A stretch of DNA of 64,000 bases from Candidatus Poriferihabitaceae bacterium (GCA_965262585.1 OZ253546.1:266547-330546), one strand, 5' to 3'. Positions 1 to 15,066 are shown, numbered from the stretch's first letter. The notes: generated by a model not told the origin, from the sequence alone. Program-made: numbers and translations.

Positions 1-265
1 GTCGGCTATCGCCGGCATGTTGTACTGGATTCCCGTGTCCCTAACTCATCATTCCCGCTGTCGCGTGAATGACGAGATTGTGGTTTTTTTCGTAGGGACC
101 CATTGCGACTTGTCCTCATCCGCAAACGAGGAATATCAAAAGTGCGTCATTCCCGAACGATAGAAAAATAAGGCGCGCCAGCGACTATATTTTTCATCGT
201 ATCGGGAATCCAGAAGGCCAAATAAGGAGTCGGCTGTCGCCGCACATGTTTTACTGGATTCCCTG
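1..265. repeat. REP/NIME-like intergenic repeat cluster
   Basis: Direct reading. Two ~35-bp direct copies (1-34 and 229-263, gtcggctRtcgccg..catgttNtactggattccc). ATTCCCGC-N4-GCGNGAAT palindromic unit at 51-70. Imperfect hairpin with 22-nt arms (149-170 / 188-209), which recurs inverted at 42273-42333. Related units at 1295-1314, 42206-42224 and 63459-63474. Confidence 0.6.
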
Positions 266-266
266 A

Positions 267-1290
267 ATTCACAAACGAAGCGCAACACTCTGCTACGGTA
301 TTACCATGGGAAATCACTACAAACAGATCACCCTTGAAGAGCGCTGTGAAATGGCCTACTTACTCACCAAGGGACACTCACTCCGACAAATCGCGGCAGC
401 TCTGGATCGCGCGCCATCTACGGTGTCGCGAGAACTGAATCGCAATGGCTCTGCAACCAAGGGCTACGAGAAAGACTATGCCGACCTGAAAGCCCGGGCG
501 CGGCGATGGCAAGGCTCTATGCTGGACCGCGATGAGGTGCTGCGCGAGGAAGTTTTGGATTTGCTCAAACACGACTGGTCGCCCCAACAGGTGTCCGCCG
601 GACTTGCCCGAAAGCACCAGCGGCCAGTCATTTCCTACGAAACCATCTACCGCTTCGTCTATGCCCAAATTGCTCGTAAAAAAGAATATCCATGGCGCCA
701 TTATCTGCCCCAAGCCCGATCAAAACGAAGCCGCCGCCGGCACAAATTGAACGGCAAAGCACCCGCTATATCCCAACGCCGGCCACTCTCTGAGCGGCCA
801 GACACCGCCACCGACCGACAAACCCCCGGTCATTGGGAAGCCGACCTGATGCTGTTTAGCGCCTACGGTCAAGCCTTGCTGGTTGTCCAAGAACGGCACT
901 CCCGCCTGCTGCTCGCGGCGCGCCCTGCCGGCAAATCCGCGGCGCCCATCGCCGAACTTATCGGCGACCTGCTGGCACCGCTGCCACCCACATGGCGGCA
1001 AACCATTACCTTCGATAACGGCACTGAATTCGCCCGCCATTACCACCTCCATGCCCTCGGTATTGAGACCTTTTTCTGCGACATCAGAGCGCCCTGGCAA
1101 AAGGGCGGTGTTGAAAATTCCATCGGTCGCTTGCGCCGGAACTTGCCCCGAAAAACCGACCTGAAAACCCTCTCAGATGAGCACTTTACACGCATCATAC
1201 AAGCGCATAATAATACCCCCCGAAAGTGCCTCGGCTATCAAACTCCCGCCGAGGTTTTTAGAAACCATGTGTTGCGCTTCAAATGTGAAT
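267..1290 (+). mobile_element. IS30-family insertion sequence (ends approximate)
   Basis: Terminal inverted repeats attcacaaacgaagcgcaacac (267-288) and gtgttgcgcttcaaatgtgaat (1269-1290) are 19/22 complementary and bracket the transposase ORF. The ORF stop (1316) lies 26 nt past the right IR, so the right end is uncertain. Confidence 0.7.
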
Positions 1291-1316
1291 GTGCATTCCC
1301 GCTTTCGCGAGAATGA
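306..1316 (+). CDS. IS30-family DDE transposase
   Basis: 336 aa. N-terminal HTH (LRQIAAALDRAPSTVSRELNRN). IS30-type catalytic motifs TPGHWEADLM, TFDNGTEF and APWQKGGVENSIG. Confidence 0.85.
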   Translation: MGNHYKQITLEERCEMAYLLTKGHSLRQIAAALDRAPSTVSRELNRNGSATKGYEKDYADLKARARRWQGSMLDRDEVLREEVLDLLKHDWSPQQVSAGLARKHQRPVISYETIYRFVYAQIARKKEYPWRHYLPQARSKRSRRRHKLNGKAPAISQRRPLSERPDTATDRQTPGHWEADLMLFSAYGQALLVVQERHSRLLLAARPAGKSAAPIAELIGDLLAPLPPTWRQTITFDNGTEFARHYHLHALGIETFFCDIRAPWQKGGVENSIGRLRRNLPRKTDLKTLSDEHFTRIIQAHNNTPRKCLGYQTPAEVFRNHVLRFKCECAFPLSRE

Positions 1317-1327
1317 CGGCCCTACGC

Positions 1328-2014
1328 TTAAAACCATATTTCGCCTTTGAGCAAGATGGTGTGTTCATCCGCATCATCGCCCTCGCGGCGTTCGCCCAGC
1401 AGGGTTACCTCATAGCGAGTGCCCGACTTGCACTTCATTCCGACTCGGTAACTGTCTTGGGAGCCGAGGGTCATCTCTCCATACGGTGTCAATACCGCTT
1501 CCAAACCCCGCAACGATACGCCGTAGCCAATCTTTGCGTCCAAATACGCCCGGTAATCGGACCTGGCATCACCGTCAGCCGCATCGGATACGCCATGATC
1601 CCATAACGCTTGTAGGTCGCTGCCGCTTTCCCCATAGCCGGGGCTTAGGCCGAACGAAAATCCTTGCCCGTCCGTCCCCGGCAGCAATTTAACTTGACCG
1701 CTAATTCCCCATTTCTCATATTCGCCTTCACTGCCCAACAAAGTGCGCACGCGACCTTCCACGGTTACCCGTTTCGCCGGATTGCTGTAATGCAAACCAA
1801 CCCCCACCTCCATTCCGCCGCCGGTCTGGCCATCGCCGCCGTCATAGCGAACGCCAACCTCGAACGATGGCGAAAACACTCCGCCGCCCGCCAATTCGTG
1901 CCTTTGTTTGGCTTCCATCGACAACCGAACCCGGGTGACATCCACTTCCAGTTCCGTGAAGTTGGCGTTGCCATCGACCTCCAACTCAGCGCGCACTACC
2001 TCGCTTTTTAACAA
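1328..2014 (-). pseudogene. Truncated autotransporter beta-barrel fragment (C-terminal ~228 codons only)
   Basis: Nucleotides 1321-2010 match 50986-51675, the 3' end of the giant gene, with about 16 mismatches counted by eye in 690 bp. The ORF-track start is a TTG exactly at the homology breakpoint. No signal peptide or passenger is present. Confidence 0.85.
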
Positions 2015-2026
2015 CCCGGCGAGAGG

Positions 2027-2926
2027 TCAGGCGGTGGACAACACATCCGCCAGCACAGTGAGCAAACGTAGCGCCGTTCGCATCCCTGCACCGCCGACGT
2101 CCCGCTGTGGCGCACATTCCACCAGATTAGCACCCAGTAGGCGATGATTGGTAGCCAGCGAGATGATAATTTCCGTTACTTCATCCACTCCCGGCCCGCC
2201 GGGGGACGGCGATGGTACTGCAGGCATTTCCACTGGATTAATGCCGTCCATATCAAGCGTCAAATAAACATTTTCATCCGTGATATGCCTCAGCATGTCA
2301 TCAACACCCATTTTTTTCATCATCCGAGAAGTAATCAGCGTGCCGTAGTGGGAAGCGGCAGCAGCGTCGGCGGGCAACGCCGTACCCGAGCCCCGCAAAC
2401 CGATTTGTGTGATACCGTTAATACAAGGCATTTCCGCCGCACGTCGCATGACGCTTGAACGCCCCCACTTTTCATTGTGCCAGCGATCTTTCCAGTCGAG
2501 GTGGGCGTCTATTTGCACCACATGCACGCCACCGTCCAGCGCATCCAAGCCTTGCAAAGGCGGGATGGCAACCGAGTCATCGCCACCCACTATCAGCGGC
2601 CGCCCGCCGACGCTAACAATCTCCGCCACGCGCTGGGCCAAGTTATTCCGGTCCACCGTAGCATCGCCCAACAACGGAAACAGACCCAGGTCAATTGGCT
2701 GGTCGGCAAAAAGCTGGCGTTGCAAATCCACATCCCAACGACCGGGTTTAACCTCGGCACTGGCAAGCCGCAACGCTTCTGGCGCATCGGCACACAGGGT
2801 TGAAGCCTTTCCTGTCGGCGTCATGAACGGCACTGCAAGCAACGCCGCACGCGCGGTCTCCGGATTTTTGACAACGGGCAAGTTGAAGAAACCGCCCGCC
2901 GGCACCTGTTGTTTCATATTTGGCAT
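2027..2926 (-). CDS. Arginase-superfamily ureohydrolase (agmatinase/guanidino-acid hydrolase-like)
   Basis: Family motifs LIVGGDDSV (variant of GGDHS), VQIDAHLDW (DAHxD) and TLDMDGINP (DxD). Start taken at ATG 2926 (MPNMKQQ), 1 nt after the upstream stop; the ORF-track start 2959 overlaps the upstream gene. Confidence 0.75.
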   Translation of the reverse strand: MPNMKQQVPAGGFFNLPVVKNPETARAALLAVPFMTPTGKASTLCADAPEALRLASAEVKPGRWDVDLQRQLFADQPIDLGLFPLLGDATVDRNNLAQRVAEIVSVGGRPLIVGGDDSVAIPPLQGLDALDGGVHVVQIDAHLDWKDRWHNEKWGRSSVMRRAAEMPCINGITQIGLRGSGTALPADAAAASHYGTLITSRMMKKMGVDDMLRHITDENVYLTLDMDGINPVEMPAVPSPSPGGPGVDEVTEIIISLATNHRLLGANLVECAPQRDVGGAGMRTALRLLTVLADVLSTA

Positions 2927-2927
2927 G

Positions 2928-4271
2928 TCATGGGTGAAGGGAAGCCCGAGCAAAATCAAGCAGATTAACTTCCGCCGGTCCGGCGATGGATTCCGGCTTG
3001 CCCGCGTAACGAAGACACTCGTTTGCCTTGGCGATTAAGTCACTATCGGTCATCGGCTTGTCGGGCATACCATAACACTGACCACAAAAGCCGCTGACTT
3101 TGCGTCCGTCGGCGAGTACTAAGGTAACGCGTGCACTCTCAGGGAAGCGCTGCCGGTTTTCTTCCGAAGACAACTCCTCGTCGGTTTTGACGACAACCTC
3201 GTCCATCAGTGAACACAGGTGGGAATCATTAATGGCCTCAACGGACAAATCACCCAGCCGCACCCGGCCGTGCAAAACAGCGCAGGCGACGGCATAAGGC
3301 AAGCAAAACTGGCCCTGCTGGGGCGATGCGGGACGTGCGTAAGGCAGGCTGATAGCGACCAACTCCGGCACTTCAATCTCGATGTGACAAATGGCACCTT
3401 CATCGATGGCATGCTGCCGCATCAACAAGGAAGTTTGTTCGATTGCCGCCCCGGCGGCGGAACACACGGGCGACGTTTTAATGAATAGTCCCGGGTCAGT
3501 CAGTCGCCAGCGCGATCCAAGACTGTCCATCTGCGATAGTTCCACCGCACCGCCATTGAGCATGGAAAAAAATCCGGCCGCATGTTCAAAAGCGTTGCCT
3601 GCTGCAGTCAGGCCTGCCTCAGCGGCACGGGAAAAATCCACGGCGCGGGCGGCCGTATCGCCGGCCATAAAAGCTTTACCATCGAACCCGAACAAGCACT
3701 TTCCTCCACCGGCTGCGGCGGCAGCAAAACTGATGGCACTCGCGCTTTGTTCCGCATTCAACCCGCGCAATCTGCATGCGGCAGCCGTCGCACCGGCCAG
3801 ACCCAGGGTGGCTGTACTCCACCACCCGCGAAAATAATGGCGATGCGTACACATATCCGCCAGTGTATAAGCGATTTCTGAACCCGCCACAAATGCCTGC
3901 AACAGCGCCTCTTCATCCGCTCCGTTTTCTTCGGCAACCGCCAACGCCGCCGCAAAAACCACTGCCGATCCGTGCATAATTCCAGTGTAACTGGTGTCGT
4001 CAAAATCCCATACGTGCGCCGCCGTGCCATTAATCAGCGCCGCCTCGTGGGCCCCACCATTATCACCAAAACCAGCGATAGTGCATGGGCCTCCCCGCGC
4101 AAAGGCCCGCCCCAAAGCGACGACACGAGGATGCATACCACCGGCTGCCATAACGGCAGTGGTGTCAAATATCGCCCGTCGTGCCGCCCGCCGCACCGCC
4201 TCGGGAATCTCCGATAACGTCGTCGCCCAACCGGCAAAAACGTGCGCCGGAGAGCGTCCAGCCTCGGTCAT
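2928..4271 (-). CDS. MmgE/PrpD-family protein (2-methylcitrate dehydratase superfamily, substrate unknown)
   Basis: 447 aa, which is the family length. Contains AIFDTTAVMAAG and AAHVWDFDDTSY segments typical of MmgE/PrpD. ATGA overlap with the upstream ABC ATPase gene. Confidence 0.7.
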   Translation of the reverse strand: MTEAGRSPAHVFAGWATTLSEIPEAVRRAARRAIFDTTAVMAAGGMHPRVVALGRAFARGGPCTIAGFGDNGGAHEAALINGTAAHVWDFDDTSYTGIMHGSAVVFAAALAVAEENGADEEALLQAFVAGSEIAYTLADMCTHRHYFRGWWSTATLGLAGATAAACRLRGLNAEQSASAISFAAAAAGGGKCLFGFDGKAFMAGDTAARAVDFSRAAEAGLTAAGNAFEHAAGFFSMLNGGAVELSQMDSLGSRWRLTDPGLFIKTSPVCSAAGAAIEQTSLLMRQHAIDEGAICHIEIEVPELVAISLPYARPASPQQGQFCLPYAVACAVLHGRVRLGDLSVEAINDSHLCSLMDEVVVKTDEELSSEENRQRFPESARVTLVLADGRKVSGFCGQCYGMPDKPMTDSDLIAKANECLRYAGKPESIAGPAEVNLLDFARASLHP

Positions 4272-5020
4272 AAAATCTGACTCAAAAATTCACGGGTGCG
4301 CGGGTCTTTCGCACTGGTAAAAAATGTGGCAGGCGGCCCCTGCTCTACAATCAGGCCGTGGTCGGTGAAATAAATTCTGTCGGCAACCTCGCGTGCAAAT
4401 CCCATTTCATGGGTGACCAGGCAACAAGTCATACCTTCGGCGGCTAACTCCTTGATGGTCACCAATACTTCTTTAACCGTCTCCGGGTCCAACGCCGCGG
4501 TGACTTCGTCAAACAACATAATATCCGGCTCCATCGCCAGCGAACGCGCGATTGCCACGCGCTGTTGCTGTCCGCCCGACAGTTCGCCCGGATAACTGTC
4601 TTCTTTGCCCTCCAGCCGCACTTTTTGAATCAACGCGCGCGCCTGTCCCTCGACTTGCGCCTTGTCTTTTTTGAGCACCAGCATCGGCGCCATCATTACA
4701 TTTTCCAGCGCCGTTTTGTGCGGGAAAAGATTATATTGTTGAAACACCATGCCCACTTTTCTACGCAAGGCCAGTTTGTCCAGATTCGGCGAATGGACCT
4801 CGATGCCTTCCACCGTAATTGAACCTGACTGAATATCGCTGAGCGCATTGATGCAACGAATGAGAGTCGATTTACCAGAACCGGATGGGCCGATGATGCA
4901 CACCACCTCGCCCTTGTACACGTCCAGTGATACGCCTTTGAGTACCTCCAGGTTTCCAAAAGATTTGTGCACGTCCTGCAACGATAAAATTGGCATATCA
5001 ACAGTCCAGTTTTCGCTCAT
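4268..5020 (-). CDS. Polar amino-acid ABC transporter ATP-binding protein
   Basis: Walker A GPSGSGKST, signature LSGGQQQRVAIARSL, Walker B IMLFDEVTAALD. 250 aa, GlnQ/HisP-like. Confidence 0.9.
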   Translation of the reverse strand: MSENWTVDMPILSLQDVHKSFGNLEVLKGVSLDVYKGEVVCIIGPSGSGKSTLIRCINALSDIQSGSITVEGIEVHSPNLDKLALRRKVGMVFQQYNLFPHKTALENVMMAPMLVLKKDKAQVEGQARALIQKVRLEGKEDSYPGELSGGQQQRVAIARSLAMEPDIMLFDEVTAALDPETVKEVLVTIKELAAEGMTCCLVTHEMGFAREVADRIYFTDHGLIVEQGPPATFFTSAKDPRTREFLSQIL

Positions 5021-5030
5021 TGCTTACCCC

Positions 5031-5897
5031 TCATTCGTTGACGGCGTATTTTTTCTCCAAGCGCCTCGTCCATTCGGCGATCGGATAACTGTAGATGAAA
5101 AACCACGTCATCAGCCACAAATACATCGGGATTAAAAATTCGCTGCGACCTTCGGCGGCCAGCGCTCCCTGAGTCAACATCATGCCATCATTGACGCCCA
5201 GAATGGAGATGAGCGGCGTGGACATGGTAAGAATGGCGTACCAATTCATCCACGGGGGAATCATGCGCCTGATGCATTGCGGCAGAATGATCTCCCACAT
5301 CGTCTGGCGGCGTGAAAAGGCCAACGACTCGGCCGATTCCCACTGGCCCGTGGGAATCGACACGATCGCACCGCGCACGATCTCGGAAACATTGGCCATG
5401 ATCGGTAGGGACAAGGCAAAAGCCGCTTTGCTCCAACCCGGAATATCGTATTCTTCGCCGAACAACGTGGCGCGGAAAGGTAGCAGCAACATGAAATAAA
5501 ACAATAGCACCAGCCACGGCGAGTTACGAAATAACTGGGTGATACTCCAACAGACGCGACGCAACGCTGCCAGCCGGGAAACTTGCCCGATGCCCAACCA
5601 CAGCCCCAAAAAAGTTCCCATCGCCATGGACAGAAAACTGACGGCAATATTGAGTATAAATCCGCCGAACTCGCCGGGCGGGCCAAAAAACATCAGCGGC
5701 GTCCACTTGATTAACGTTTGCAAAGTGGTCTGTTCGGGGTTGCCCTGGAACTGTGCCCACGCTTCGTCCGCCGCGACCCATACAACCAGCATCACAACAA
5801 CAACCAGCCCCCCAACGCAAAGCCGCGAACCCACCGGCTGGCACTGCGGGACGGGGGCAGGCGTGGCGAGAACCGGCAGAACGGTGCGAGTATTCAT
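5031..5897 (-). CDS. Amino-acid ABC transporter permease (His/Glu/Gln/Arg/opine family)
   Basis: Multi-TM protein with EAA-type loop SAESLAFSRRQTMWEIILPQ. Start set at ATG 5897 (MNTRT), which forms an ATGA overlap with the upstream permease stop. The longer ORF-track form is probably an over-extension. Confidence 0.8.
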   Translation of the reverse strand: MNTRTVLPVLATPAPVPQCQPVGSRLCVGGLVVVVMLVVWVAADEAWAQFQGNPEQTTLQTLIKWTPLMFFGPPGEFGGFILNIAVSFLSMAMGTFLGLWLGIGQVSRLAALRRVCWSITQLFRNSPWLVLLFYFMLLLPFRATLFGEEYDIPGWSKAAFALSLPIMANVSEIVRGAIVSIPTGQWESAESLAFSRRQTMWEIILPQCIRRMIPPWMNWYAILTMSTPLISILGVNDGMMLTQGALAAEGRSEFLIPMYLWLMTWFFIYSYPIAEWTRRLEKKYAVNE

Positions 5898-6637
5898 GCG
5901 CCTGTCCCGAAGCCGGGGATGCGGGTGGTTTTTTCCCATCGGTGCATGAACCACACCAGTGCCCCAACAATCAGAAGATACACTGCCCACACCACGTTCA
6001 TCATTTCAAATACATTGTATTCGTCCGACCAAATTTGATTGGCTACGTACAATGTTTCCGGCACCGCAATGGCATACGCGACTGTGGTGGTTTTGACCAG
6101 GTTGATAAGATTGTTGTTGAGGGCTGGCAGACACACGCGGTAGGCAAGTGGCAACGTAACATAGCGGTAGATCTGCGCCCGTGTATAGCCCAGCGCCTCC
6201 GCTCCTTCAATGGTAGACTTGTGCACCGACTCCACGCCGGCGCGAAAAATTTCAATGTTGAAGGCACCGGCAAAAAACGACAACGATACCACCGCCCAGC
6301 CGTAGCTGGACAGCAATCCGCCACGTTCGCCGACCGCAACCGACAAAAAAGAATCGACGGCGAAATAAAAAAAGTACAGTTGAATAAGCGGCGGCGTATT
6401 ACGAAAGAACTGTACGTAGCCTCGCGTCACTCGACGCACCACGGACAACGGTGAAGCCTGCAACCACGCACCGACAACGCCGATAACAATTGACAGCACT
6501 ACGCACACCACGGACAGGTGGATAGTGGTCCAAATGCCGCTGACAAAACGCCCGCGATCCCACGAATCGTAGAAAACGGTTAGTTTGATGCCGTGCGCTT
6601 GGTACAGCCACTCAAACCATTGCCAGAACGCTTCCAT
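5894..6637 (-). CDS. Amino-acid ABC transporter permease (His/Glu/Gln/Arg/opine family)
   Basis: 247 aa. Loop GAEALGYTRAQIYRYVTLPLA and hydrophobic segments typical of family-3 ABC permeases. Confidence 0.85.
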   Translation of the reverse strand: MEAFWQWFEWLYQAHGIKLTVFYDSWDRGRFVSGIWTTIHLSVVCVVLSIVIGVVGAWLQASPLSVVRRVTRGYVQFFRNTPPLIQLYFFYFAVDSFLSVAVGERGGLLSSYGWAVVSLSFFAGAFNIEIFRAGVESVHKSTIEGAEALGYTRAQIYRYVTLPLAYRVCLPALNNNLINLVKTTTVAYAIAVPETLYVANQIWSDEYNVFEMMNVVWAVYLLIVGALVWFMHRWEKTTRIPGFGTGA

Positions 6638-6741
6638 CGCAATCGTTACTCCCTGCGCGGGCGTTTATCTTGTCTCAACAAACAACGCACACAAGCGGCG
6701 ATCAACGCCGCCCATGTGCGAATAGGTCGCCCGCCCTCCGG

Positions 6742-7617
6742 TTATTCACCGGGATCGTGTTTGGTGTCGCAGATTTTATCTCCCGCCAAACAGTTCTTGC
6801 GCATATCTTCGGGCCATTGCGTTTTGGGAATTCCCCATTTTTTCTCCAGAGCGATGATGGTGCCATCCTTGTGCCAGTCAATAATCGCCTCGGAGAGCAT
6901 CTGCCCGATGGGTTTGTGCAAGTCTTCCCGCCGAACCGCGGCACCCCAGGGCACGTCATCCACCACCGGCGTGGAGATGGAGTAATCTCTCCATTTGTCG
7001 GGGTTGTTGACCTTGCGTGGAACAAAAGCGGAATCATCGTACAGCCAACCGCCACAGCGCCCGTCTAGCAAAGCCGCCTCGACTTCCGGAACGCCTTTGA
7101 AAGCTACCATCTCGGCACCCCGCTTGATACCGTGCTCCTTGTTATACCAAGCACCCTGAATACCGCAGATTTTCTTGCCTTTGATAGAGTCCCAGCCGTC
7201 GATGCCGGAATCCTTGTAAGCAAAAATGGCAACGCCCGAAGAGTAATAATTCGGCTGCACAATTCCCACCACCTTACGGCGGTCGGGCTTGTCCGACATG
7301 GTGGCAATCATCAAGTCAATTTTACCCTGCTGCAAAAACTGCATACGGTTTGATGAAACGGTGACCACCAGTTCTACATCGATGGTCTTACCGGCTTTGT
7401 CGCCGATGCGCTTGGCTAAATCGCGCACCATGTCAATTTCCATGCCCACCACGCCGCCGGAAGCGTCCCGCATGCCCCATGGAGCGTAGTCGGCTTTGAC
7501 GCCGACAACAATTTTGCCTTTGGCAATGATGTCATCGAGGGTACCGGCCATGGCTGCCGGTGATAATGTGGCCGCCAGACAACCGGCGGCAATCAGAGTT
7601 GTCAGTTTTTTATACAT
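6742..7617 (-). CDS. Periplasmic substrate-binding protein (family 3, polar amino acid/opine type)
   Basis: Signal peptide MYKKLTTLIAAGCLAATLSPAAMAG from ATG 7617. Contains GKIVVGVKADYAPWG and IDLMIATMS segments typical of the family. Confidence 0.8.
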   Translation of the reverse strand: MYKKLTTLIAAGCLAATLSPAAMAGTLDDIIAKGKIVVGVKADYAPWGMRDASGGVVGMEIDMVRDLAKRIGDKAGKTIDVELVVTVSSNRMQFLQQGKIDLMIATMSDKPDRRKVVGIVQPNYYSSGVAIFAYKDSGIDGWDSIKGKKICGIQGAWYNKEHGIKRGAEMVAFKGVPEVEAALLDGRCGGWLYDDSAFVPRKVNNPDKWRDYSISTPVVDDVPWGAAVRREDLHKPIGQMLSEAIIDWHKDGTIIALEKKWGIPKTQWPEDMRKNCLAGDKICDTKHDPGE

Positions 7618-8614
7618 GATGTTTATCCTCGCTATGTTGGTCATGATTTTGTGAATGGTTGGGTGAGTGATTGAGTGAAAGCGACCGGTCGGTCCAGTAC
7701 TCACCGGTTTGGAAACTGTTTTTTTCCACCGCATCAATATGGTGGCGCACCGCCGCCGGGCTACGGCAGACTACCATCGCTATCAACGCTTCCAAAAAAA
7801 CAAGAGCAGGAACGTAGGATGGAAAAAACTGCGTGCTGTCGGTCGGCAAACAGATAACGTGGCGCGAAAACTCAGCCAGCGGCGAACCGCTGTCATCGGT
7901 AATGGATACGAGATCTGCTCCCGAGTCCTTAATTATGCGGGCGATATGCACGGAGTCGCGCGCATAAGGCGCATACCCGAGCAACAGCACTGTGTCATCG
8001 GTGGAGAGTTTGGTTAACACGCCGATAGCGTTGGTGCCAACCGTATGCCAGTTGTCAAAGGCAATGTCGGCCATATATTTCATGTGCGCCATAAGATGTG
8101 CGGAACCAAGACCGCCCGCCAGAAACACCCGCCGCGCACCGGCCAGACGGTCGGCAACGGCATCCAAAATATCCGGGGCAATTTCATTCAACATCACTTG
8201 AATGTTGTCGATGGATTCGATGCCGTAACGAATCACAAAGGACCCAGATTTGCCCGAAATGTTTTTATCCCGCAAAGCGGTCGCCTTTCGAGCAAAGGTA
8301 AGCTTGCGCGCACGCACGCCACTACGGCAAGCCTCTCGAAGCGCCTCATAATCGGCATAGCCGATGACTCGCGCCAGCCGTGAAAAATGTGAAGGTGCAA
8401 TGTCGTGCCATTGCGCCACGCGACGCAACGAATAATTTGCCACATCATCGGATTTATCACGTATCACCTCCGCCGCACGCCGTTGTTGCGGGCTCAGGCG
8501 GGAATGCAACTCGGCCAGCCTCGCATGCAAAAAGCCATGAACATCGGCATCGGTTCCCCGCCCATGCACGGGCGGCTCATCTCCTGTTGGTCGGGTTTGG
8601 TGTAAATGCGCCAT
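7610..8614 (-). CDS. MurR/RpiR-family transcriptional regulator (HTH + SIS domain)
   Basis: HTH_6-like LSPQQRRAAEVIRD...SLRRVAQWHDIAPSHFSRLARVIGYADYEAL, then a SIS-like RVFLAGGLGSAHLMAHM. First gene of the overlapped operon. Confidence 0.8.
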   Translation of the reverse strand: MAHLHQTRPTGDEPPVHGRGTDADVHGFLHARLAELHSRLSPQQRRAAEVIRDKSDDVANYSLRRVAQWHDIAPSHFSRLARVIGYADYEALREACRSGVRARKLTFARKATALRDKNISGKSGSFVIRYGIESIDNIQVMLNEIAPDILDAVADRLAGARRVFLAGGLGSAHLMAHMKYMADIAFDNWHTVGTNAIGVLTKLSTDDTVLLLGYAPYARDSVHIARIIKDSGADLVSITDDSGSPLAEFSRHVICLPTDSTQFFPSYVPALVFLEALIAMVVCRSPAAVRHHIDAVEKNSFQTGEYWTDRSLSLNHSPNHSQNHDQHSEDKHHV

Positions 8615-8697
8615 TTTTTATACTAATTCACCTCAAATGTTGCAAAGTGGCTAAAATCTACCATATACTCTTAAGTTATTCAACATCCAAGGCCCGT
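8615..8697. promoter_or_regulatory. AT-rich divergent promoter region between the rpiR-like operon and the DMGDH-like gene
   Basis: 83-bp AT-rich spacer between divergent start codons. No operator could be defined by eye. Confidence 0.35.
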
Positions 8698-11127
8698 ATG
8701 CAAAAAGCACGTATTATCGTCATTGGCGGCGGCATTATCGGCTGCTCCACTTTGTATCATCTGGCCCGAGCGGGATGCACAGACGTCATACTCATTGAAC
8801 GGGGCGAACTAACCTCCGGTGCGACCTGGCATGCCGCCGGCAATGTGCACAACCAAAATCCCATCCCCAACCTATCGGCCTTGCAAGCCTATTCCATGAA
8901 GCTTTATGACGGCTTATCAGCGGAAGTCGGGCAAGAAGTCGGCAGTCATATCGTGGGCGGGTTCTTTTTGGCACAAAGCCGTGCGCGCATGGATGAATTC
9001 AAGTTTCTGGCTGGCAAGTTCAAGGCGCTGGGGCTACCGTATGAACTGGCCTCTCCCGCGGACATTAAAGCTAAATTTCCACTGATTAACACCGATGGCA
9101 TTGTCGGCGGTGCCTGGGACCCGGACGAAGGTTACGTTGATCCTTATTCCGTCACTATGGGGTTGGCGGCCGCCGCACGGCAAAAGGGGGCAAAAATTGT
9201 CCGCAACACTCGCGTAACCGCAATTCGCCGACTACCCTCCGGATATTGGCAACTGAGCAGCGATCAGGACACTGAGTATGAATGCGAAATTGTGGTCAAC
9301 GCCGCCGGCTATTGGGGCAACGAAGTGGCGGGGATGGTCGGTGCCAAATTACCAATTATCAACATGGAACATCACTATCTGGTGACCGACGTCATACCCG
9401 AAATCGCCGCGTATGAGAGCGAACTGCCGCTCATCCGCGACGTGGATGCGCAGTGGTATCTGCGACAGGAGGGCAATGGGTTGCTGCTCGGAGCGTGGGA
9501 GAAAGACTGCCGCACCGCATGGGACGGCAAACCCGCGCCCTGGGATTTTGCCCAGGAATTGTTCCAGCCAGACCTGGAGCGGATGGAAGAACGGCTGACG
9601 GCAATTTATCACCGAGTACCGGCACTCAATACGGCGGGAATTAAACGCATTATCAATGGAGCGATCTCCTTTACTCCGGACGGACGCGGGCTTATCGGTC
9701 CCATGCCCGGGGTTCCCAATTTTTTTGTCGCCTGCGGTTTTTTGAGCGGCATCGCACAGGGTGGCGGCGTGGGGCTTGCCTTGTCGGAATGGATTCTGGA
9801 AGGCGAGACAGAAATGGACCTGTCGTTCATGGATGTGGCACGCTTTGGCGGCTGGAGCAATCGTGACTTTGCCGATGCGCGGGTACGGGACATATTCCCG
9901 CGGCGCTATGAGATTTTATATCCGCAGCTGGAACGCGATAGCGGGCGCTCGGTGCAAACCACACCAATATACGACCGCCTGCTGGAGAGCGGCGCCGTAA
10001 TGGGACAAGTGCATGGCTGGGAACGTCCACTGTGGTTTGCTCCCGGAGGCGTTGCCGCCCGGGATGTACCCTCTTTTTCGAAACCCAACTGGTGGGAGCA
10101 TGTCGGCCACGAAGCGCGTGCGGCACACACGACGACGGCGTTGTTCGAGATGTCTTCCTATTCCAAGTGGCGCGTTGAAGGGCCTGATGCGACGGCCTTT
10201 CTGAATCGTATTAACATCAGCCGCCTGCCACCGGTGGGCAGGATGGCGCTGGGATTGATGCTCAACAAACGCGGCGGTATTGTGGGCGATCTCATTGTCG
10301 CCTGCTTGGATGACAATGTCTTTTATCTTGTCGGTGCGACCTTGGCTGAAGATATTTACCAACGCTGGATGGAGCAACACAAAGGTAGGTTGAACGTGTC
10401 CATTCGCACAGTGACAGCAGACACCGCCGCGTTGGGGCTGGTCGGCCCGTCCTCACGCCGTCTGCTCTCCGATATCAGCGATGCGGATTGTTCCAATGAT
10501 GCCTTCCCGTTTATGAATTGGCGTAACATTGAAGTTGGGGGTGTGCGCTGTATGGCGATGCGCTTGTCGTACGCTGGTGAATTAGGCTGGGAATTACACT
10601 GTCCAATGCCCTCCCAGCCGGATTTATTTGCGGCACTGATGGCCGCAGGCGAACGCCATGGCTTGCGACTGGCGGGCAGCCGGGCACTGTCGCACTTGCG
10701 CCTGGAAAAAGGCTATCGCAGTTGGGGAGCCGATATTAATGTCGAAATCACTCCCATGGCGGCCGGGCTTGAGCGTTTTTGCCACCCCGAACTCCCCGAA
10801 AAGGCGCATACGCTCGGCCGCGAAATAGTGTTGCAGGAGCGCCAAACACCACCCAAAAAGTCACTGGCCACTTTGCTTTTTGAATCCCCCAACACCGCTG
10901 GCTGCTGGGGTTCGGAGCCGGTCTTGCACGGCGACACTTGCGTCGGCTATGTTACTTCCGGCGGCTATGGCTGGCGCACGAACACCCACATCGCCGTTGG
11001 CTGGCTACCCACCGACTTGTGTGTGGTGGGAACCGAATTGAATCTGGAAATTTTGGGCAATCGCTGCCGGGCTACGGTAGCATCCGACCCGGTCTACGAC
11101 CCGGAAAACACCGCCTTGCGGTCCTGA
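8698..11127 (+). CDS. Dimethylglycine/sarcosine dehydrogenase-like FAD oxidoreductase fused to a GcvT-type folate-binding domain
   Basis: Start at MQKARIIVIGGGIIGCS (dinucleotide fold). Covalent-flavin-type motif TSGATWHAAG. C-terminal aminomethyltransferase-like region (LSYAGELGWELHCP, LRLEKGYRSWG). ~809 aa, which is the family length. Confidence 0.8.
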   Translation: MQKARIIVIGGGIIGCSTLYHLARAGCTDVILIERGELTSGATWHAAGNVHNQNPIPNLSALQAYSMKLYDGLSAEVGQEVGSHIVGGFFLAQSRARMDEFKFLAGKFKALGLPYELASPADIKAKFPLINTDGIVGGAWDPDEGYVDPYSVTMGLAAAARQKGAKIVRNTRVTAIRRLPSGYWQLSSDQDTEYECEIVVNAAGYWGNEVAGMVGAKLPIINMEHHYLVTDVIPEIAAYESELPLIRDVDAQWYLRQEGNGLLLGAWEKDCRTAWDGKPAPWDFAQELFQPDLERMEERLTAIYHRVPALNTAGIKRIINGAISFTPDGRGLIGPMPGVPNFFVACGFLSGIAQGGGVGLALSEWILEGETEMDLSFMDVARFGGWSNRDFADARVRDIFPRRYEILYPQLERDSGRSVQTTPIYDRLLESGAVMGQVHGWERPLWFAPGGVAARDVPSFSKPNWWEHVGHEARAAHTTTALFEMSSYSKWRVEGPDATAFLNRINISRLPPVGRMALGLMLNKRGGIVGDLIVACLDDNVFYLVGATLAEDIYQRWMEQHKGRLNVSIRTVTADTAALGLVGPSSRRLLSDISDADCSNDAFPFMNWRNIEVGGVRCMAMRLSYAGELGWELHCPMPSQPDLFAALMAAGERHGLRLAGSRALSHLRLEKGYRSWGADINVEITPMAAGLERFCHPELPEKAHTLGREIVLQERQTPPKKSLATLLFESPNTAGCWGSEPVLHGDTCVGYVTSGGYGWRTNTHIAVGWLPTDLCVVGTELNLEILGNRCRATVASDPVYDPENTALRS

Positions 11128-11495
11128 ATCAGCGCGCTTGTAAAACTAATTTCAATCCAACCGCAAGCAACACCCACCCTCAAAAACAGCACCGCACCGG
11201 GCTGCTCCGATGATGTTTTCCGCAATTTCCCCGCCCGGCCGATGCGGTGCGGTGCGTTCCGCAGCCCGGGCGAGGCGCAATTCTTGCTATAATCGGCGGA
11301 TTATCCGCGATAATCCATTGACACGACCGGGTCGTGCAATCACAATACCGCGACTTTGCAACATCTTGTGTAGAAGCCGTTTTGAAACCAATCCGAATTA
11401 GCCGAGGGCGACTTGTGGAGCCTTTGGAAATTCTGTGAGTAGGATAAAGCGGTGCAACAAATTTCTGATATAATCTATTGATATTTATACGGTTT

Positions 11496-11572
11496 TGGGG
11501 TGTAGCCAAGTGGCCTAAGGCACCGGATTTTGATTCCGGCACTCGGAGGTTCGAATCCTCCCACCCCAGCCA
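11496..11572 (+). tRNA. tRNA-Gln (anticodon UUG)
   Basis: Manual cloverleaf: acceptor TGGGGTG/CACCCCA, anticodon stem CCGGA/TCCGG with loop TTTTGAT, T-arm GGAGG-TTCGAAT-CCTCC, encoded GCCA 3' end. Close to the E. coli tRNA-Gln pattern. Confidence 0.9.
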
Positions 11573-11615
11573 TTGCCCTGACCATTGCCCTGACCATTGC
11601 CATGAATTGCCATGA
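11570..11615 (+). repeat. 12-nt tandem repeat (ccattgccctga x2, ccattgccatga, attgccatga)
   Basis: Direct reading. The array starts inside the tRNA CCA end and finishes at the first ATG of the prs ORF. Confidence 0.85.
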
Positions 11616-12577
11616 GGAGAAGCGGCGTGTCCCCGGATAATTTGACGGTTTTTAGCGGTAATGCCAACCCGGAGTTGGCGAATGAGGTTGTGCAGTGCCT
11701 CGGTATCCCCCTGGGACGGGCACTGGTGGGCAGGTTTAGCGATGGCGAGGTCAACGTCGAAGTGATGGAAAATGTGCGCGGGCAGGATGTCTTCGTGATT
11801 CAGCCCACCTGCGCGCCGAGCAACGACAACCTTATGGAACTGCTGGTGATGCTGGATGCCATCAAGCGGTCGTCGGCGGGCCGCATCACCGCGGTGGTGC
11901 CGTATTTCGGCTACGCCCGGCAGGATCGCCGTCCGCGCACCGCACGGGTGGCGATTTCGGCGAAACTGGTGGCTTCCATGATTAGCATCGCCGGTGCCGA
12001 CCGGGTGTTGACCATCGACCTGCATGCCGACCAGATTCAGGGGTTTTTTGACATCCCTACTGACAATATCTACGCCTCGCCGGTGCTGATGAGTGAATTG
12101 TGGCGAAAACAGTTGCCCAACCCCCTCATCGTCTCTCCCGATGTAGGCGGCGTGGTGCGCGCCCGCGCCATGGCCAAGCAACTGGAAACCGAACTTGCTA
12201 TCATCGACAAACGCCGCCCGCGCACCAACGAAACCAAAGTGATGCACATCATCGGCGAGGTCGAGGGACGCTCGTGCATCCTGATTGACGATATGGTGGA
12301 CACCGCCAACACGCTGTGCGAAGCCGCCGCTGCATTAAAAAAGCAGGGGGCTGTCAAAGTGCTTGCCTGCTGTACTCACCCGGTGCTGTCCGGCGAGGCG
12401 GTCAAACGAATCACCGCATCAGAACTCGACGAGTTGCTGGTCACCAATTCCATTCCATTGAGCCCGGCGGCGCGCAAATGCGCGATGATCAAGCAGTCGA
12501 GCGTGGCTGAATTGCTTGCCGAATCCATGCGCCGCATCACCACCGGAGATTCCGTCAGCAGCCTTTTTGTTGATTAA
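11612..12577 (+). CDS. prs: Ribose-phosphate pyrophosphokinase
   Basis: Contains [41 protein letters not shown] and the PRPP loop [12 protein letters not shown]. The true start may be GTG 11627, which has an AGGAGA Shine-Dalgarno 6 nt upstream. Confidence 0.95.
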
Positions 12578-12602
12578 AGTAAAAAACCATGAGGACCGAA
12601 AA

Positions 12603-13301
12603 ATGAACGAACAATTCGAATTGATTGCCCGAACCCGCGCCCGCTCCGGCACTTCGCTGGTGCGCAAGTTGCGCCGCGAAGGCGATGTGCCTGCGGTACT
12701 GTATGGCGGCGGCAAGGAAAATATCAGCATCGCCATCAATCACGATGTGCTGTTTCACAGCCTCGAGAAAGAGGAATTCCATTCCGCCATCATCGTCATC
12801 AACACCGACGGCAACAAGGAACAGGCGATCCTGCGCGATGTTGTGCGCCATCCCTACAAGATCTCCATCCTGCACGCGGATTTCCAGCGCATTGACGACA
12901 CGAAGGTGCTGACCATGTCTCTGCCCATTCACTTCATCGGCGAAGAACTATGCCCCGGCGTGCGAAACTCCGGCGGCATCATCTCCCACATGATGACCGA
13001 GGTGGAGATTTCCTGCTTACCCAAAGACCTGCCGGAGTCGCTGGAACTCGATGTATCGACCCTCGACCTCAATGAATCGCTGCACCTTTCCGACATTAAA
13101 CTGCCCGAAGGCGTCAACATCACCACCCTGATGCACGACACAAACAACGAGCACGACCACGCCGCAGTCGCGGTGTTGCCGCCCAAGGTGGTCGCCAGCG
13201 AAGAAGAGGAAGCGGAAGACGCCGCAGCCGAGGCCGGCGAAGCGGAGGCGGAAGACACCGCCGAGGATGCGGACGGCGGTGCATCCGCCAAGAGCGACTG
13301 A
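12603..13301 (+). CDS. rplY: 50S ribosomal protein L25 / general stress protein Ctc
   Basis: N-terminus MNEQFELIARTRARSGTSLVRKLRREGDVPAVLYGG and a long acidic C-terminal tail. Conserved position between prs and pth. Confidence 0.9.
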   Translation: MNEQFELIARTRARSGTSLVRKLRREGDVPAVLYGGGKENISIAINHDVLFHSLEKEEFHSAIIVINTDGNKEQAILRDVVRHPYKISILHADFQRIDDTKVLTMSLPIHFIGEELCPGVRNSGGIISHMMTEVEISCLPKDLPESLELDVSTLDLNESLHLSDIKLPEGVNITTLMHDTNNEHDHAAVAVLPPKVVASEEEEAEDAAAEAGEAEAEDTAEDADGGASAKSD

Positions 13302-13325
13302 ACCGGCTGCGGTTTGTAAGGAACG

Positions 13326-13946
13326 ATGGCGGAATCGGGCATTGCCCTGATTGTCGGGCTTGGCAACCCCGGCAACCGCTACGCCGCCAACCGGCATAAC
13401 GCTGGCTTCCACTTCTTGGAACGCCTGCAGTTTTTGCGCGGCTTCCAACTCGCCAACGAAAAACGCTTCAAGGCCGAGGTCGGTGGAGTCGTCATAAACA
13501 GCAGCACGGTGCGCGTCATGGCTCCCGATACCCTGATGAATCTGAGCGGTCGGGCGGTGGCGCCTATGGCGGCCTTTTATCGCATCGCCCCGGAGCAGAT
13601 TCTGGTGGTTCACGATGAACTCGATCTTGCGCCGGGTTGCGCGCGCCTCAAGATGTCCGGCGGGCACGGTGGCCACAACGGCCTGCGCGACATTATCGCC
13701 GCTCTCGGCAGCCGGGATTTCCTGCGCTTGCGCATCGGCATCGGCCACCCCGGCCCGAACCGGGATGTCTCCGCTTATGTACTCAGCCGCCCCAACACCC
13801 ACGATAAAATGCTAATTGAACAAGCGATAGAACGCGCCCTCGAAGTCCTCGACGAGGTAGTCGCCGGAAACATCGACGCCGCCATGTCCAGATTGCACGG
13901 CAAATCACCCGATGATGCGCATCCCGGTGGTAACCGTGGGCTTTAA
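13326..13946 (+). CDS. pth: Peptidyl-tRNA hydrolase
   Basis: LIVGLGNPGNRYAANRHNAGF and HDELDL, with a conserved GGHNGLRDI segment. Confidence 0.95.
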   Translation: MAESGIALIVGLGNPGNRYAANRHNAGFHFLERLQFLRGFQLANEKRFKAEVGGVVINSSTVRVMAPDTLMNLSGRAVAPMAAFYRIAPEQILVVHDELDLAPGCARLKMSGGHGGHNGLRDIIAALGSRDFLRLRIGIGHPGPNRDVSAYVLSRPNTHDKMLIEQAIERALEVLDEVVAGNIDAAMSRLHGKSPDDAHPGGNRGL

Positions 13947-15066
13947 GTGCGGCATCGTCGGCTTGCCTAACGTCGGTAAATCGACGCTATTCAACGCGCT
14001 CACCCGCTCCCGGACCGCTGAGGCCGCCAACTACGCTTTTTGCACCATCGACCCCAACGTCGGCATGGTGGAAGTGCCGGACCCGCGACTCGCGCAACTG
14101 GCGGCGTTGGTCAAACCGCGCAAAGTCATCCCCGCCGCCATCGAGTTCGTTGACATCGCCGGGCTGGTGGCCGGAGCATCCAAAGGCGAAGGCTTGGGCA
14201 ACCGCTTCCTAGCCCACATCCGCGAAGTGGACGCCATCGTCCATGTGGTGCGCGCCTTTGAAGATAGCGCCGTCACCCATGTTCCCGGTGCCATCGACCC
14301 CGCCGCCGACATTGAAACCATCCATACCGAATTGCTGCTGGCGGATATGGAGACCGCGGAAAAAGCGGTGTTGCGCATGACCGGCCAATGCAAGGCCGGC
14401 GACAAGCAAGCCCGCTTGTTGCGGGATTTATTCACCGCCGTAAAAGCGCACCTAGACGGCGGCGAACCAGTGCGCACCATGACGCTGGACGAAAACCAGC
14501 AACTACACTTAAAGCCGCTCTGTTTCCTCACCGCCAAGCCGGTGGTGTACATCGCCAACGTCAACGAACAGGGCAACGAGAAGGTCGATGAACAAGTCGA
14601 CAAAAAAAATCGGCAAGGCAATCCCCGCTTGGCCGCCGTCGAAAAAATCGCCGCCGGGGAAAACGCTCCAGTGGTTGCCATCTGCGCCGCCATCGAACAG
14701 GAATTATCGGAACTCAGCGCGCACGAAGGGCTGCTGTTTCTCGAGGACATGGGATGGCGGGAAGCGGGACTCGACCGCCTAATCCGTGCCGGTTATTCGC
14801 TGCTCGGACTGCACACTTATTTCACCGCCGGTGTCACTGAAGTACGCGCCTGGACGGTGCCGATCGGCACTCGCGCCCCGGCCGCCGCCGGGGTTATTCA
14901 CAGCGACTTCGAAAAAGGATTTATCCGCGCCGAAACCATCGCTTTTGAGGACTACATTCACGGCAATGGCGAACAAGGTGCGAAGGAAGCGGGACGCCTG
15001 CGACTCGAGGGCAAGGACTATGTCGTCAGCGATGGAGACGTTATGCACTTTCGTTTTAATTTATAG
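13936..15066 (+). CDS. ychF: Redox-regulated ATPase YchF
   Basis: GFKCGIVGLPNVGKSTLFNAL P-loop and C-terminal DGDVMHFRFN. Start assumed at GTG 13936; the ORF track gives 13912. Confidence 0.9.
   Translation: MGFKCGIVGLPNVGKSTLFNALTRSRTAEAANYAFCTIDPNVGMVEVPDPRLAQLAALVKPRKVIPAAIEFVDIAGLVAGASKGEGLGNRFLAHIREVDAIVHVVRAFEDSAVTHVPGAIDPAADIETIHTELLLADMETAEKAVLRMTGQCKAGDKQARLLRDLFTAVKAHLDGGEPVRTMTLDENQQLHLKPLCFLTAKPVVYIANVNEQGNEKVDEQVDKKNRQGNPRLAAVEKIAAGENAPVVAICAAIEQELSELSAHEGLLFLEDMGWREAGLDRLIRAGYSLLGLHTYFTAGVTEVRAWTVPIGTRAPAAAGVIHSDFEKGFIRAETIAFEDYIHGNGEQGAKEAGRLRLEGKDYVVSDGDVMHFRFNL

Follow-up and report, generated by a model that had tools for sequence, protein, structure and literature searches.

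All characterised enzymes of the MmgE/PrpD family act on a C4 1,4-dicarboxylate backbone that is substituted at C2 or C3 (PMC12290011). Two isomerases of the family, iminodisuccinate (IDS) epimerase and methylsuccinate isomerase, use a two-base mechanism with a histidine and a tyrosine (PMC12290011), and the catalytic residues named for IDS epimerase are H99 and Y145 (PMC7347537). Here we describe a gene cluster from a Candidatus Poriferihabitaceae bacterium in which an MmgE/PrpD-family protein (the PrpD-like protein) is encoded together with an ABC importer, a flavoprotein that resembles dimethylglycine dehydrogenase (DMGDH), an arginase-fold ureohydrolase and an RpiR-type regulator. The cluster lies in a 64,000-nucleotide stretch of DNA (GCA_965262585.1 OZ253546.1:266547-330546), and the window in this text means that whole stretch. 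It is a catabolic operon built from known enzyme families, with no substrate assigned to it in the literature searched. The initial annotation of the window had not recognised the combination as a described pathway. In agreement with this, a full-text literature search found no paper that ties such a cluster to a substrate. A transcriptome preprint on R. pomeroyi covers the mgd genes alone and is silent on PrpD and RpiR, and a paper on nitrogen limitation in SAR11 reports OccT and dadA, but OccT could not be shown to be the importer described here.

Described systems that resemble the locus

The IDS epimerase of Agrobacterium tumefaciens BY6 (2HP0/2HP3) resembles the PrpD-like protein, which keeps its catalytic histidine and tyrosine. 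The substrate of the IDS system is an N-substituted aspartate, and its C-N lyase has a parallel in the aspartase/fumarase-superfamily partner found in loci related to ours. However, the two epimerase-type proteins are related only remotely (E = 1e-38 across 410 aligned residues) and a tryptophan replaces H150 in the PrpD-like protein. Furthermore, the partner here is of the true aspartase subfamily and not an IDS lyase, a predicted tetrahydrofolate (THF)-dependent demethylase is added, and IDS is a synthetic chelator. Likewise, (S)-(R)-methylsuccinate isomerase applies a two-base His/Tyr mechanism to a C2-substituted succinate (PMC12290011), and carboxylate-binding lysines are kept in the PrpD-like protein. 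That isomerase is encoded in clusters of the itaconate/CoA-transferase kind, and its acid substrate contains no nitrogen (PMC12290011). Our locus, in contrast, has no CoA enzymes and has the context of an amino-acid importer.

The flavoprotein has the architecture of SoxBDAG, DMGDH and MgdABCD and shares with them a predicted oxidation of an N-methyl amine by flavin adenine dinucleotide (FAD), with transfer of the C1 unit to THF. N-demethylation is, to our knowledge, the reaction of every DAO-GcvT fusion and every heterotetrameric Sox enzyme characterised so far. In its predicted working, the system is thus like the oxidation of sarcosine or of N-methylglutamate (by MgdABCD, N-methylglutamate dehydrogenase), to which a step like that of IDS epimerase is joined. 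The locus differs from the Sox, DMGDH and Mgd systems in its importer of the polar amino acid/opine (PAAT) type, its RpiR regulator and its epimerase, aspartase and ureohydrolase partners, and it has no gene link to glycine betaine or methylamine.

The occ and noc systems of Agrobacterium comprise a PAAT-type importer, an OoxAB or NoxAB oxidase, an arginase and an ornithine cyclodeaminase. The locus resembles them in outline only, in that it, too, joins an importer of the PAAT family to a flavin amine oxidase and an enzyme with the arginase fold. Unlike occ and noc, it has a DMGDH-type oxidase with a folate domain, a hydrolase that is no arginase and an RpiR regulator. No cyclodeaminase is present among the Pfam families of the eight locus proteins, a statement that does not come from a dedicated search for a cyclodeaminase or for OoxAB/NoxAB. 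The analogy with Agrobacterium opine catabolism that had been drawn for the window is thus weak: the oxidase is DMGDH-type, the hydrolase is no arginase and the opine label holds only at the level of the family.

Two further comparisons concern the ureohydrolase. Creatinase together with sarcosine oxidase releases urea and then removes an N-methyl group, which matches a minimal version of the cluster. However, creatinase has the M24 fold and not the arginase fold, and an achiral compound such as creatine contrasts with the recurrent racemase or epimerase partners of our system. Our protein has the arginase fold of the guanidino-acid hydrolases GbuA and GpuA and agrees with them in five of its six metal ligands. 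It departs from them in that an aspartate takes the place of the first histidine ligand and an arginine that of the proton-shuttle histidine, and its scores lie under all curated cut-offs.

A core of importer and demethylase

Judged by sequence and gene neighbourhood, the importer and a THF-type demethylase are the constant pair of this system, usually joined by RpiR. Its accessories are the ureohydrolase, an aspartase and either the PrpD-like protein or a racemase. The pair can be regarded as a shared core because ATPase identity, the nesting of solute-binding proteins (SBPs) and the kinship of the SAR11-type DMGDH-like protein span the versions of the cluster. The core recurs across sponge symbionts, other invertebrate symbionts, roseobacters and SAR11-like contigs from Tara Oceans samples. 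The window is a rare union of two accessory enzymes, the PrpD-like protein and the ureohydrolase, that are normally separate around the same core: the ureohydrolase is usual in the window's lineage and in SAR11-like contigs, and the PrpD-like protein is usual elsewhere.

Hundreds of homologues of the PrpD-like protein at ~50-57% identity were returned by a protein search, mostly from marine Alpha- and Gammaproteobacteria. Their neighbourhoods were surveyed in 70 genomic loci, in which open reading frames (ORFs) were called and clustered and then checked by tblastn. By record title, these loci include isolates of Roseibium, Ruegeria, Pelagibius and Pacificoceanicola. Demethylases, within 10 kb, and ATPases were counted in the 40 main-group PrpD loci with full flanks. 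The main gene order is a divergent rpiR followed by soxB, soxD, soxA, soxG, the PrpD-like gene, the SBP gene, two permease genes and the ATPase gene, and in most Sox-type loci the PrpD-like gene is directly 3' of soxG. A demethylase is present in 29 of the 40 loci (SoxBDAG in 22, DMGDH-like in 7), and 24 of the 40 encode an ATPase at least 73% identical to that of the window. The RpiR gene was found in 34 loci of the survey. An aspartase-subfamily gene is part of the operon at 11 survey loci (NF008909, 550 bits against a cut-off of 510), one of which, Thiolinea locus L020, has the operon PrpD–aspartase–DMGDH. An arginase-fold gene was found in only three loci, all of the window's lineage.

The ureohydrolases closest to that of the window form a small clade, which we call GGDDS after its first metal motif. 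About 10 proteins are 63-84% identical and all belong to the window's lineage, and another ~15, from pelagic samples, show 40-44% identity. At 40% identity or above, all ureohydrolases with enough flank adjoin this ABC system, whose ATPase was 80-91% identical in a metagenome scan. In the wider GGDDS/GGDxS family under 40% identity, no dominant partner was found in 36 longer metagenome loci, and the neighbours are unrelated. Only the clade at or above 40% identity is therefore informative. In the window's lineage, the usual cluster has no PrpD-like gene and consists of the DMGDH-like gene divergent from RpiR-SBP-permease-permease-ATPase-ureohydrolase (L076, L081 and L082, the last with the prs/L25/pth/ychF flank of the window). 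L074, a Candidatus Poriferihabitaceae metagenome-assembled genome whose SBP is 92% identical to the window's, has a ~52-codon PrpD remnant (9963-10160) between the ATPase and ureohydrolase genes, and the remnant is fused in frame upstream to an extended ureohydrolase ORF (9993-11063).

Another version is found on pelagic contigs with low G+C and SAR11-like flanks (L075, L078, L079, L091, L093). Here a DMGDH-like gene and an Asp/Glu-family racemase gene are divergent from SBP-permease-permease-ATPase-ureohydrolase (GGDDS), with the racemase in the place of the PrpD-like protein. This racemase is similar to the aspartate racemase 1JFL (2e-31) and passes the amino-acid-racemase subfamily model TIGR00035, and it narrowly misses the cysteate-racemase equivalog (174 bits against 190). 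In both the SAR11-like and the sponge-symbiont versions the start of the ureohydrolase gene abuts or overlaps the stop of the ATPase gene. The ureohydrolase is joined to two distant SBP clades. As a side observation, the compact cluster of L078 (2521-9897) also holds an EamA exporter-like gene, as do the four other contigs, and its neighbours are msrB on one side and a dadA-like gene on the other, with the mreBCD, pbp2 and rodA genes close by.

The PrpD-like protein and the ureohydrolase were seen together only in the window and in L001, an 82%-identical relative. The initial annotation had treated the two as partners, a view that the genome searches do not support, as the two are alternative accessories: when further species representatives were searched, the PrpD-like gene was found in none of 24 from the family and the ureohydrolase ortholog in 3 of 11 from the genus. 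The cluster is an accessory island in the window's genome, and it may mark a host-specific nutrient because it is found in only some species of the genus.

The importer has the architecture of the PAAT class, that is, an SBP_bac_3 protein, two HEQRo permeases with three transmembrane segments and one ATPase. Both permeases pass TIGR01726 (His/Glu/Gln/Arg/opine permease), with 47.4 and 69 bits against a cut-off of 42.2. In the earlier description of the importer, 'opine-type' is only a family label. The window ATPase is ~80% identical to the ATPases of SAR11-like and alphaproteobacterial clusters, a value that is found across all versions. The window SBP is 77-92% identical to the SBPs of L001, L074, L076, L081 and L082 and ~45% identical to the main clade of SBPs linked to PrpD and Sox. 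In the SBP tree, the SAR11-like SBPs nest within that main clade (support 95/79; 67% identity to L004) and the lineage of the window stands apart on a long branch of its own. The closest solved SBPs in a PDB search are generic, distant amino-acid binders (E = 1e-18 or weaker).

The DMGDH-like protein scores above the cut-offs of DAO (231 bits), FAO_M, GCV_T (241 bits, over profile positions 2-254 of 255) and GCV_T_C, and it matches rat DMGDH (4P9S) at E = 2e-174. The histidine of its TWHAAG motif aligns with the same motif in the rat enzyme, where it presumably carries the covalent FAD. The protein is thus predicted to be a THF-dependent N-demethylase. Orthologues 77-88% identical occupy the same divergent position in L074, L076, L081 and L082. 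The DMGDH-like types of the window, of SAR11 and of a third arrangement are only 28-35% identical to one another. The SAR11 type is 65% identical to those in the operons with PrpD and aspartase (L020, L068) and ~31% identical to that of the window. The L004 Sox beta subunit resembles that of true sarcosine oxidase (2GAG_B, 468 bits). SoxBDAG and the three unrelated DMGDH-like types substitute for one another beside an orthologous importer across lineages, and THF-linked amine oxidation, a part of the pathway that the initial annotation had proposed, belongs to the core of the system. The nesting of the SAR11-like SBPs and the 65% identity shared with L020 and L068 argue for an importer substrate class that would be the same across lineages.

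The PrpD-like protein

The PrpD-like protein scores 134.7 bits with PF03972 and 92.4 bits with PF19305, both above the cut-off of 32.1. Its closest solved relatives are IDS epimerase (2HP0/2HP3) and a B. subtilis protein called 'IRG1' (1e-38). Residues H100 and Y146 align to H99 and Y145 of IDS epimerase and are invariant in 29 subfamily members; K199 and K265 are also invariant in the subfamily. A tryptophan (W151, nearly invariant) stands at the position of H150 of IDS epimerase, and the full set of carboxylate residues is not present. By position, we take H150 of IDS epimerase to be the conserved carboxylate-binding histidine (P. aeruginosa His152) and to correspond to H159 of human CAD. 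P. aeruginosa His152 is among the conserved carboxylate-binding residues (PMC12290011). Together, these features predict a cofactor-independent two-base epimerase or isomerase that would act on a 2-substituted succinate skeleton.

A role as 2-methylcitrate dehydratase was considered and rejected. The scores are 25 bits against 950 for NF042438 and 21.8 against 458 for TIGR02330, and the gene context also disagrees.

Several other neighbourhoods of PrpD-like genes were observed in the survey. In the loci titled 'MAG: bacterium' (L013, L025, L030, L032, L036 and L056, ~2000-14300) and partly in Nitrospinota (L018, L041), the PrpD-like gene is convergent with the third DMGDH-like type (~28% identical). 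This pair is preceded by genes for a fused TRAP DctM transporter, an FrsA-like esterase, a gamma-glutamyltranspeptidase (GGT) and a DCC1-like protein. The TRAP/GGT/esterase-linked DMGDH-like type probably belongs to a different pathway, perhaps with a different substrate. In L054-L071, a group with 40-44% PrpD identity, the PrpD-like gene follows SoxBDAG and is accompanied by a 463-aa amidohydrolase, a CN-hydrolase and a molybdenum enzyme of the xanthine-dehydrogenase type, which suggests that these clusters break down an N-methylated heterocycle. In Pelagibius L043 (3675-6473), genes for a class-III aminotransferase, a BKACE protein and a GNAT acetyltransferase are directly downstream of a DMGDH-like gene that is divergent from RpiR-PrpD. 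An aminotransferase gene is beside RpiR-PrpD in Denitrobaculum L008 and L029 (with BKACE in L008), where no DMGDH-like gene was detected.

The GGDDS ureohydrolase

The ureohydrolase scores 153.9 bits with PF00491. Its AlphaFold model (pLDDT 90) matches the D. radiodurans agmatinase 1WOG best (TM 0.81), and a fold search with the model returned generic ureohydrolase matches only, without a clue to specificity. The first metal motif is GGDDS and not GGDHS, and this exchange of histidine for aspartate is invariant across the subfamily alignments. The DAHLD and LDMDG motifs are intact; in other words, five of the six metal ligands are kept, and the canonical binuclear-metal ligand set (GGDHS, DAHxD, DxD) is not complete. 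Furthermore, the proton-shuttle loop reads GRSS where the canonical sequence is GHG, with the shuttle histidine changed to arginine. Such a change in a loop of the active site would fit a negatively charged substrate.

The protein scores under every NCBIfam equivalog cut-off, and it was rejected as a true arginase (rocF, TIGR01229, 43 bits against 227.6), agmatinase (101.7 against 174.3) and formiminoglutamase (hutG, 80.6 against 229). The arginase of the earlier opine comparison is thus not supported here, given the TIGR01229 score and the change of two canonical catalytic residues.

Proposed function and alternative explanations

We tentatively propose that the cluster imports and breaks down chiral N-substituted aspartate-type compounds, in N-methyl and possibly N-amidino forms, a proposal whose chance of being right we place somewhat short of even. 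An epimerase-type PrpD-like protein, its replacement by an aspartate-type racemase and a recurrent aspartase together point to a chiral N-substituted aspartate, and the pairing with a demethylase suggests that the substituent is N-methyl. In the proposed pathway, the importer would take up a chiral, acidic N-substituted amino acid, with N-methyl-D/L-aspartate as the leading candidate. Its N-methyl group would be taken off by the DMGDH-like enzyme as 5,10-methylene-THF, and the free amino acid would be left. The His/Tyr pair of the PrpD-like protein would invert C2 of a 2-(substituted-amino)succinate, so that both stereoisomers become usable. In the least certain step, the ureohydrolase would remove an amidino-type substituent from a guanidino variant such as N-amidino-aspartate, with release of urea. 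Importer and demethylase would be under the control of the RpiR-type regulator whose gene opens the operon. A single substrate with both N-methyl and guanidino groups is also possible.

A number of observations weigh against this proposal. N-methyl-aspartate alone leaves the ureohydrolase no role, yet the ureohydrolase, and not the PrpD-like protein, is constant in the window's lineage. The aspartase gene is present only in a minority of loci, and about a quarter of the PrpD-subfamily genes sit in other contexts. Because a tryptophan replaces H150, one carboxylate contact may differ in the PrpD-like protein. RpiR/SIS regulators usually sense sugar phosphates. The candidate N-substituted aspartates are undocumented in sponges or seawater within this analysis. 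Finally, neither a urease alpha subunit nor a urea carboxylase was detected in the host genome, a single 2.6-Mb contig that is 97.6% complete, and the cell would therefore not assimilate any urea made. The same genome has an aspartase/fumarase-type gene elsewhere.

In its widest form, the proposal would describe a widespread marine pathway for N-substituted aspartates (N-methyl-D/L-aspartate, guanidinosuccinate) that is common to SAR11-like plankton, roseobacters and sponge symbionts. It would include the first amino-acid-epimerising MmgE/PrpD enzyme and a new Asp-for-His class of ureohydrolase, possibly the missing amidinoaspartase gene. We consider this full set of claims rather unlikely to hold. 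Amidinoaspartase (EC 3.5.3.14) is an orphan activity, and we know of no sequence for it. The identity of the substrate would name a compound of the dissolved organic nitrogen that links animals or algae to bacteria, and it would give functions to two uncharacterised subfamilies, the PrpD-like proteins and the GGDDS ureohydrolases.

The simplest form of the pathway in the initial annotation has another substrate, a creatine-type N-methylated guanidino acid. Once imported, it would lose urea to the ureohydrolase and so yield an N-methyl amino acid, from which the DMGDH-like enzyme would pass the methyl group to THF, with the PrpD-like gene as a late passenger insertion. The cluster without PrpD in L076, L081 and L082, the mere remnant in L074, the lack of the gene in all 24 other family genomes searched and the constant contact of the GGDDS clade (at least 40% identity) with this ABC system all fit such a pathway. 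So do the seven Creatinase_N/M24 paralogues of the host genome, one of them in the window at ~17.3 kb, which are in line with a guanidino-rich niche. However, creatine and sarcosine are achiral, yet a racemase is found in the SAR11-like version and an epimerase-type PrpD-like protein in the window; because such partners recur, creatine as the sole substrate was demoted to an alternative. In addition, orthologous SBP and DMGDH-like proteins operate without the ureohydrolase in most lineages, the hydrolase lacks two canonical catalytic histidines, and urease and urea carboxylase were not detected in the genome. We judge a creatine-type pathway unlikely. The earlier suggestion of an N-methylated guanidino amino acid survives for the minimal six-gene version, whose demethylase, importer and ureohydrolase fit it, whereas the racemase or epimerase and aspartase partners point to a chiral, aspartate-like skeleton. 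That IDS, the substrate of the closest solved PrpD relative, is an imino-diacid raises the question of opines or imino-diacids of marine invertebrates (octopine, alanopine, strombine). The flavoenzyme would then cleave a secondary amine, the PrpD-like protein would epimerise the imino-diacid and the ureohydrolase would degrade the freed arginine. Permeases of the His/Glu/Gln/Arg/opine family and cluster hosts of which many are invertebrate-associated, going by record titles, agree with this. Nevertheless, the distribution of roles is distinctly improbable: the GCV_T folate domain is full length and high-scoring in an enzyme whose characterised DAO-GcvT and heterotetrameric Sox counterparts remove N-methyl groups, as far as we know. 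The oxidase is not OoxAB-type, the hydrolase stays far under the arginase cut-off (43 against 227.6 bits), no ornithine cyclodeaminase appears among the cluster Pfam families (with no dedicated search) and the aspartase partners are left unexplained.

The proposal of N-substituted aspartates also has to be weighed against simpler uptake and demethylation of sarcosine or assorted N-methyl amino acids, with the PrpD-like protein and the ureohydrolase as unrelated neighbours brought in by operon shuffling. The high score of the L004 Sox beta subunit against sarcosine oxidase and the differences in accessory genes among lineages would be expected in that case. Such an explanation is very improbable, however, in view of the position of the PrpD-like gene right after soxG in most Sox-type loci and its ATGA overlap with the ATPase gene in the window, of the ureohydrolase start that abuts or overlaps the ATPase stop in two versions, and of the repeated recruitment of the same two accessory families. 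Least credible of all is a sugar-amino acid conjugate (an Amadori or fructosyl-amino-acid compound) that would be sensed by the SIS domain of RpiR and cleaved oxidatively by the flavoenzyme. It draws on the RpiR/SIS regulator of 34 loci, for which binding of sugar phosphates is typical, but no kinase, deglycase or sugar-processing gene is present among the locus Pfam families, and a folate domain and a heterotetrameric Sox are not amadoriase-like.

Regulator and divergent intergenic region

The SIS domain of the regulator scores 51.9 bits, above its cut-off, and HTH_6 scores 21 bits, under its cut-off of 28.3. The protein is 77% identical to the regulator of L076. The region between rpiR and the DMGDH-like gene is 83 nt long. 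It was aligned for the window, L074, L076, L081 and L082. A 30-nt block containing TGTTGCAA is kept in four of the five orthologous regions, and its flanks diverge. The block reads AAATGTTGCAAAG...TCTACCAT and is a candidate operator that rpiR and the DMGDH-like gene would share; a half-site that matches it, CAACAT, lies at 8681-8686. A promoter-like match for the DMGDH-like gene (TTGCAA-18-TATACT, 8640-8669) overlaps the block. The block, the half-site and the promoter-like match are all observations at the consensus level only. The divergent pair of DMGDH and RpiR-ABC-ureohydrolase is kept in the four relatives, which together with the conserved motif bears out the earlier claim that the operon forms one unit with the divergent gene. 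Conserved divergence and motif agree with, and do not prove, joint control of the operon and the DMGDH-like gene.

Locus organization

All eight genes were confirmed at 2027-11127 by ORF listing and by Pfam and NCBIfam profile searches, with the families that the initial annotation had given. The seven minus-strand genes and the facing DMGDH-like gene are a real cluster. The same gene order was found again in L074, L076, L081, L082 and L001, and the arrangement is therefore not due to chance.

Table 1. Genes and other features of the cluster, in window coordinates.
Feature	Position	Strand	Basis
Ureohydrolase (arginase-fold), unusual subfamily	2027..2926	-	PF00491, start ATG 2926
MmgE/PrpD-family protein	2928..4271	-	Pfam N and C domains
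ABC transporter ATPase	4268..5020	-	PF00005
ABC permease 2	5031..5897	-	BPD_transp_1 and TIGR01726; start ATG 5897
ABC permease 1	5894..6637	-	BPD_transp_1 and TIGR01726
15-bp G+C-rich hairpin, then T-rich tail	6686..6720	-	Terminator-like scan and fold energy
Periplasmic SBP, family 3, polar amino acid/opine class	6742..7617	-	SBP_bac_3, PF00497
RpiR/MurR-family regulator, first gene of the operon	7610..8614	-	SIS; HTH_6 under its cut-off
Conserved intergenic block, candidate operator	8635..8664	.	Alignment of five intergenic regions
DMGDH-like flavoprotein with folate-binding aminomethyltransferase domain	8698..11127	+	DAO, FAO_M, GCV_T and GCV_T_C

The minus-strand genes had been described as a chain of 4- to 14-nt overlaps, but overlaps exist at three junctions only: rpiR and the SBP gene overlap by 8 nt, and the two permease genes, like the ATPase and PrpD-like genes, overlap by ATGA. 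The other three junctions are gaps of 104 nt (SBP to permease 1), 10 nt (permease 2 to ATPase) and 1 nt (PrpD-like to ureohydrolase, counted from the ATG at 2926, a start that homologues back). The 104-nt gap contains the hairpin, whose fold energy is -48.4 kcal/mol (z = -3.7). A strong hairpin with a T-rich tail between SBP and permease genes is frequent in ABC operons, and the one found here is probably an intra-operon attenuator or an mRNA stabiliser that shifts the SBP-to-permease ratio upwards. The 3' end of the operon adjoins window 1-2014, which holds an orphan fragment of an autotransporter barrel and a transposase of the IS30 family (NF033563, 228 bits). The same position is taken in relatives by speB-like agmatinase, accA and tilS genes (L001) or by suf genes (L076, L081), indicating that the 3' flank of the operon was rearranged.

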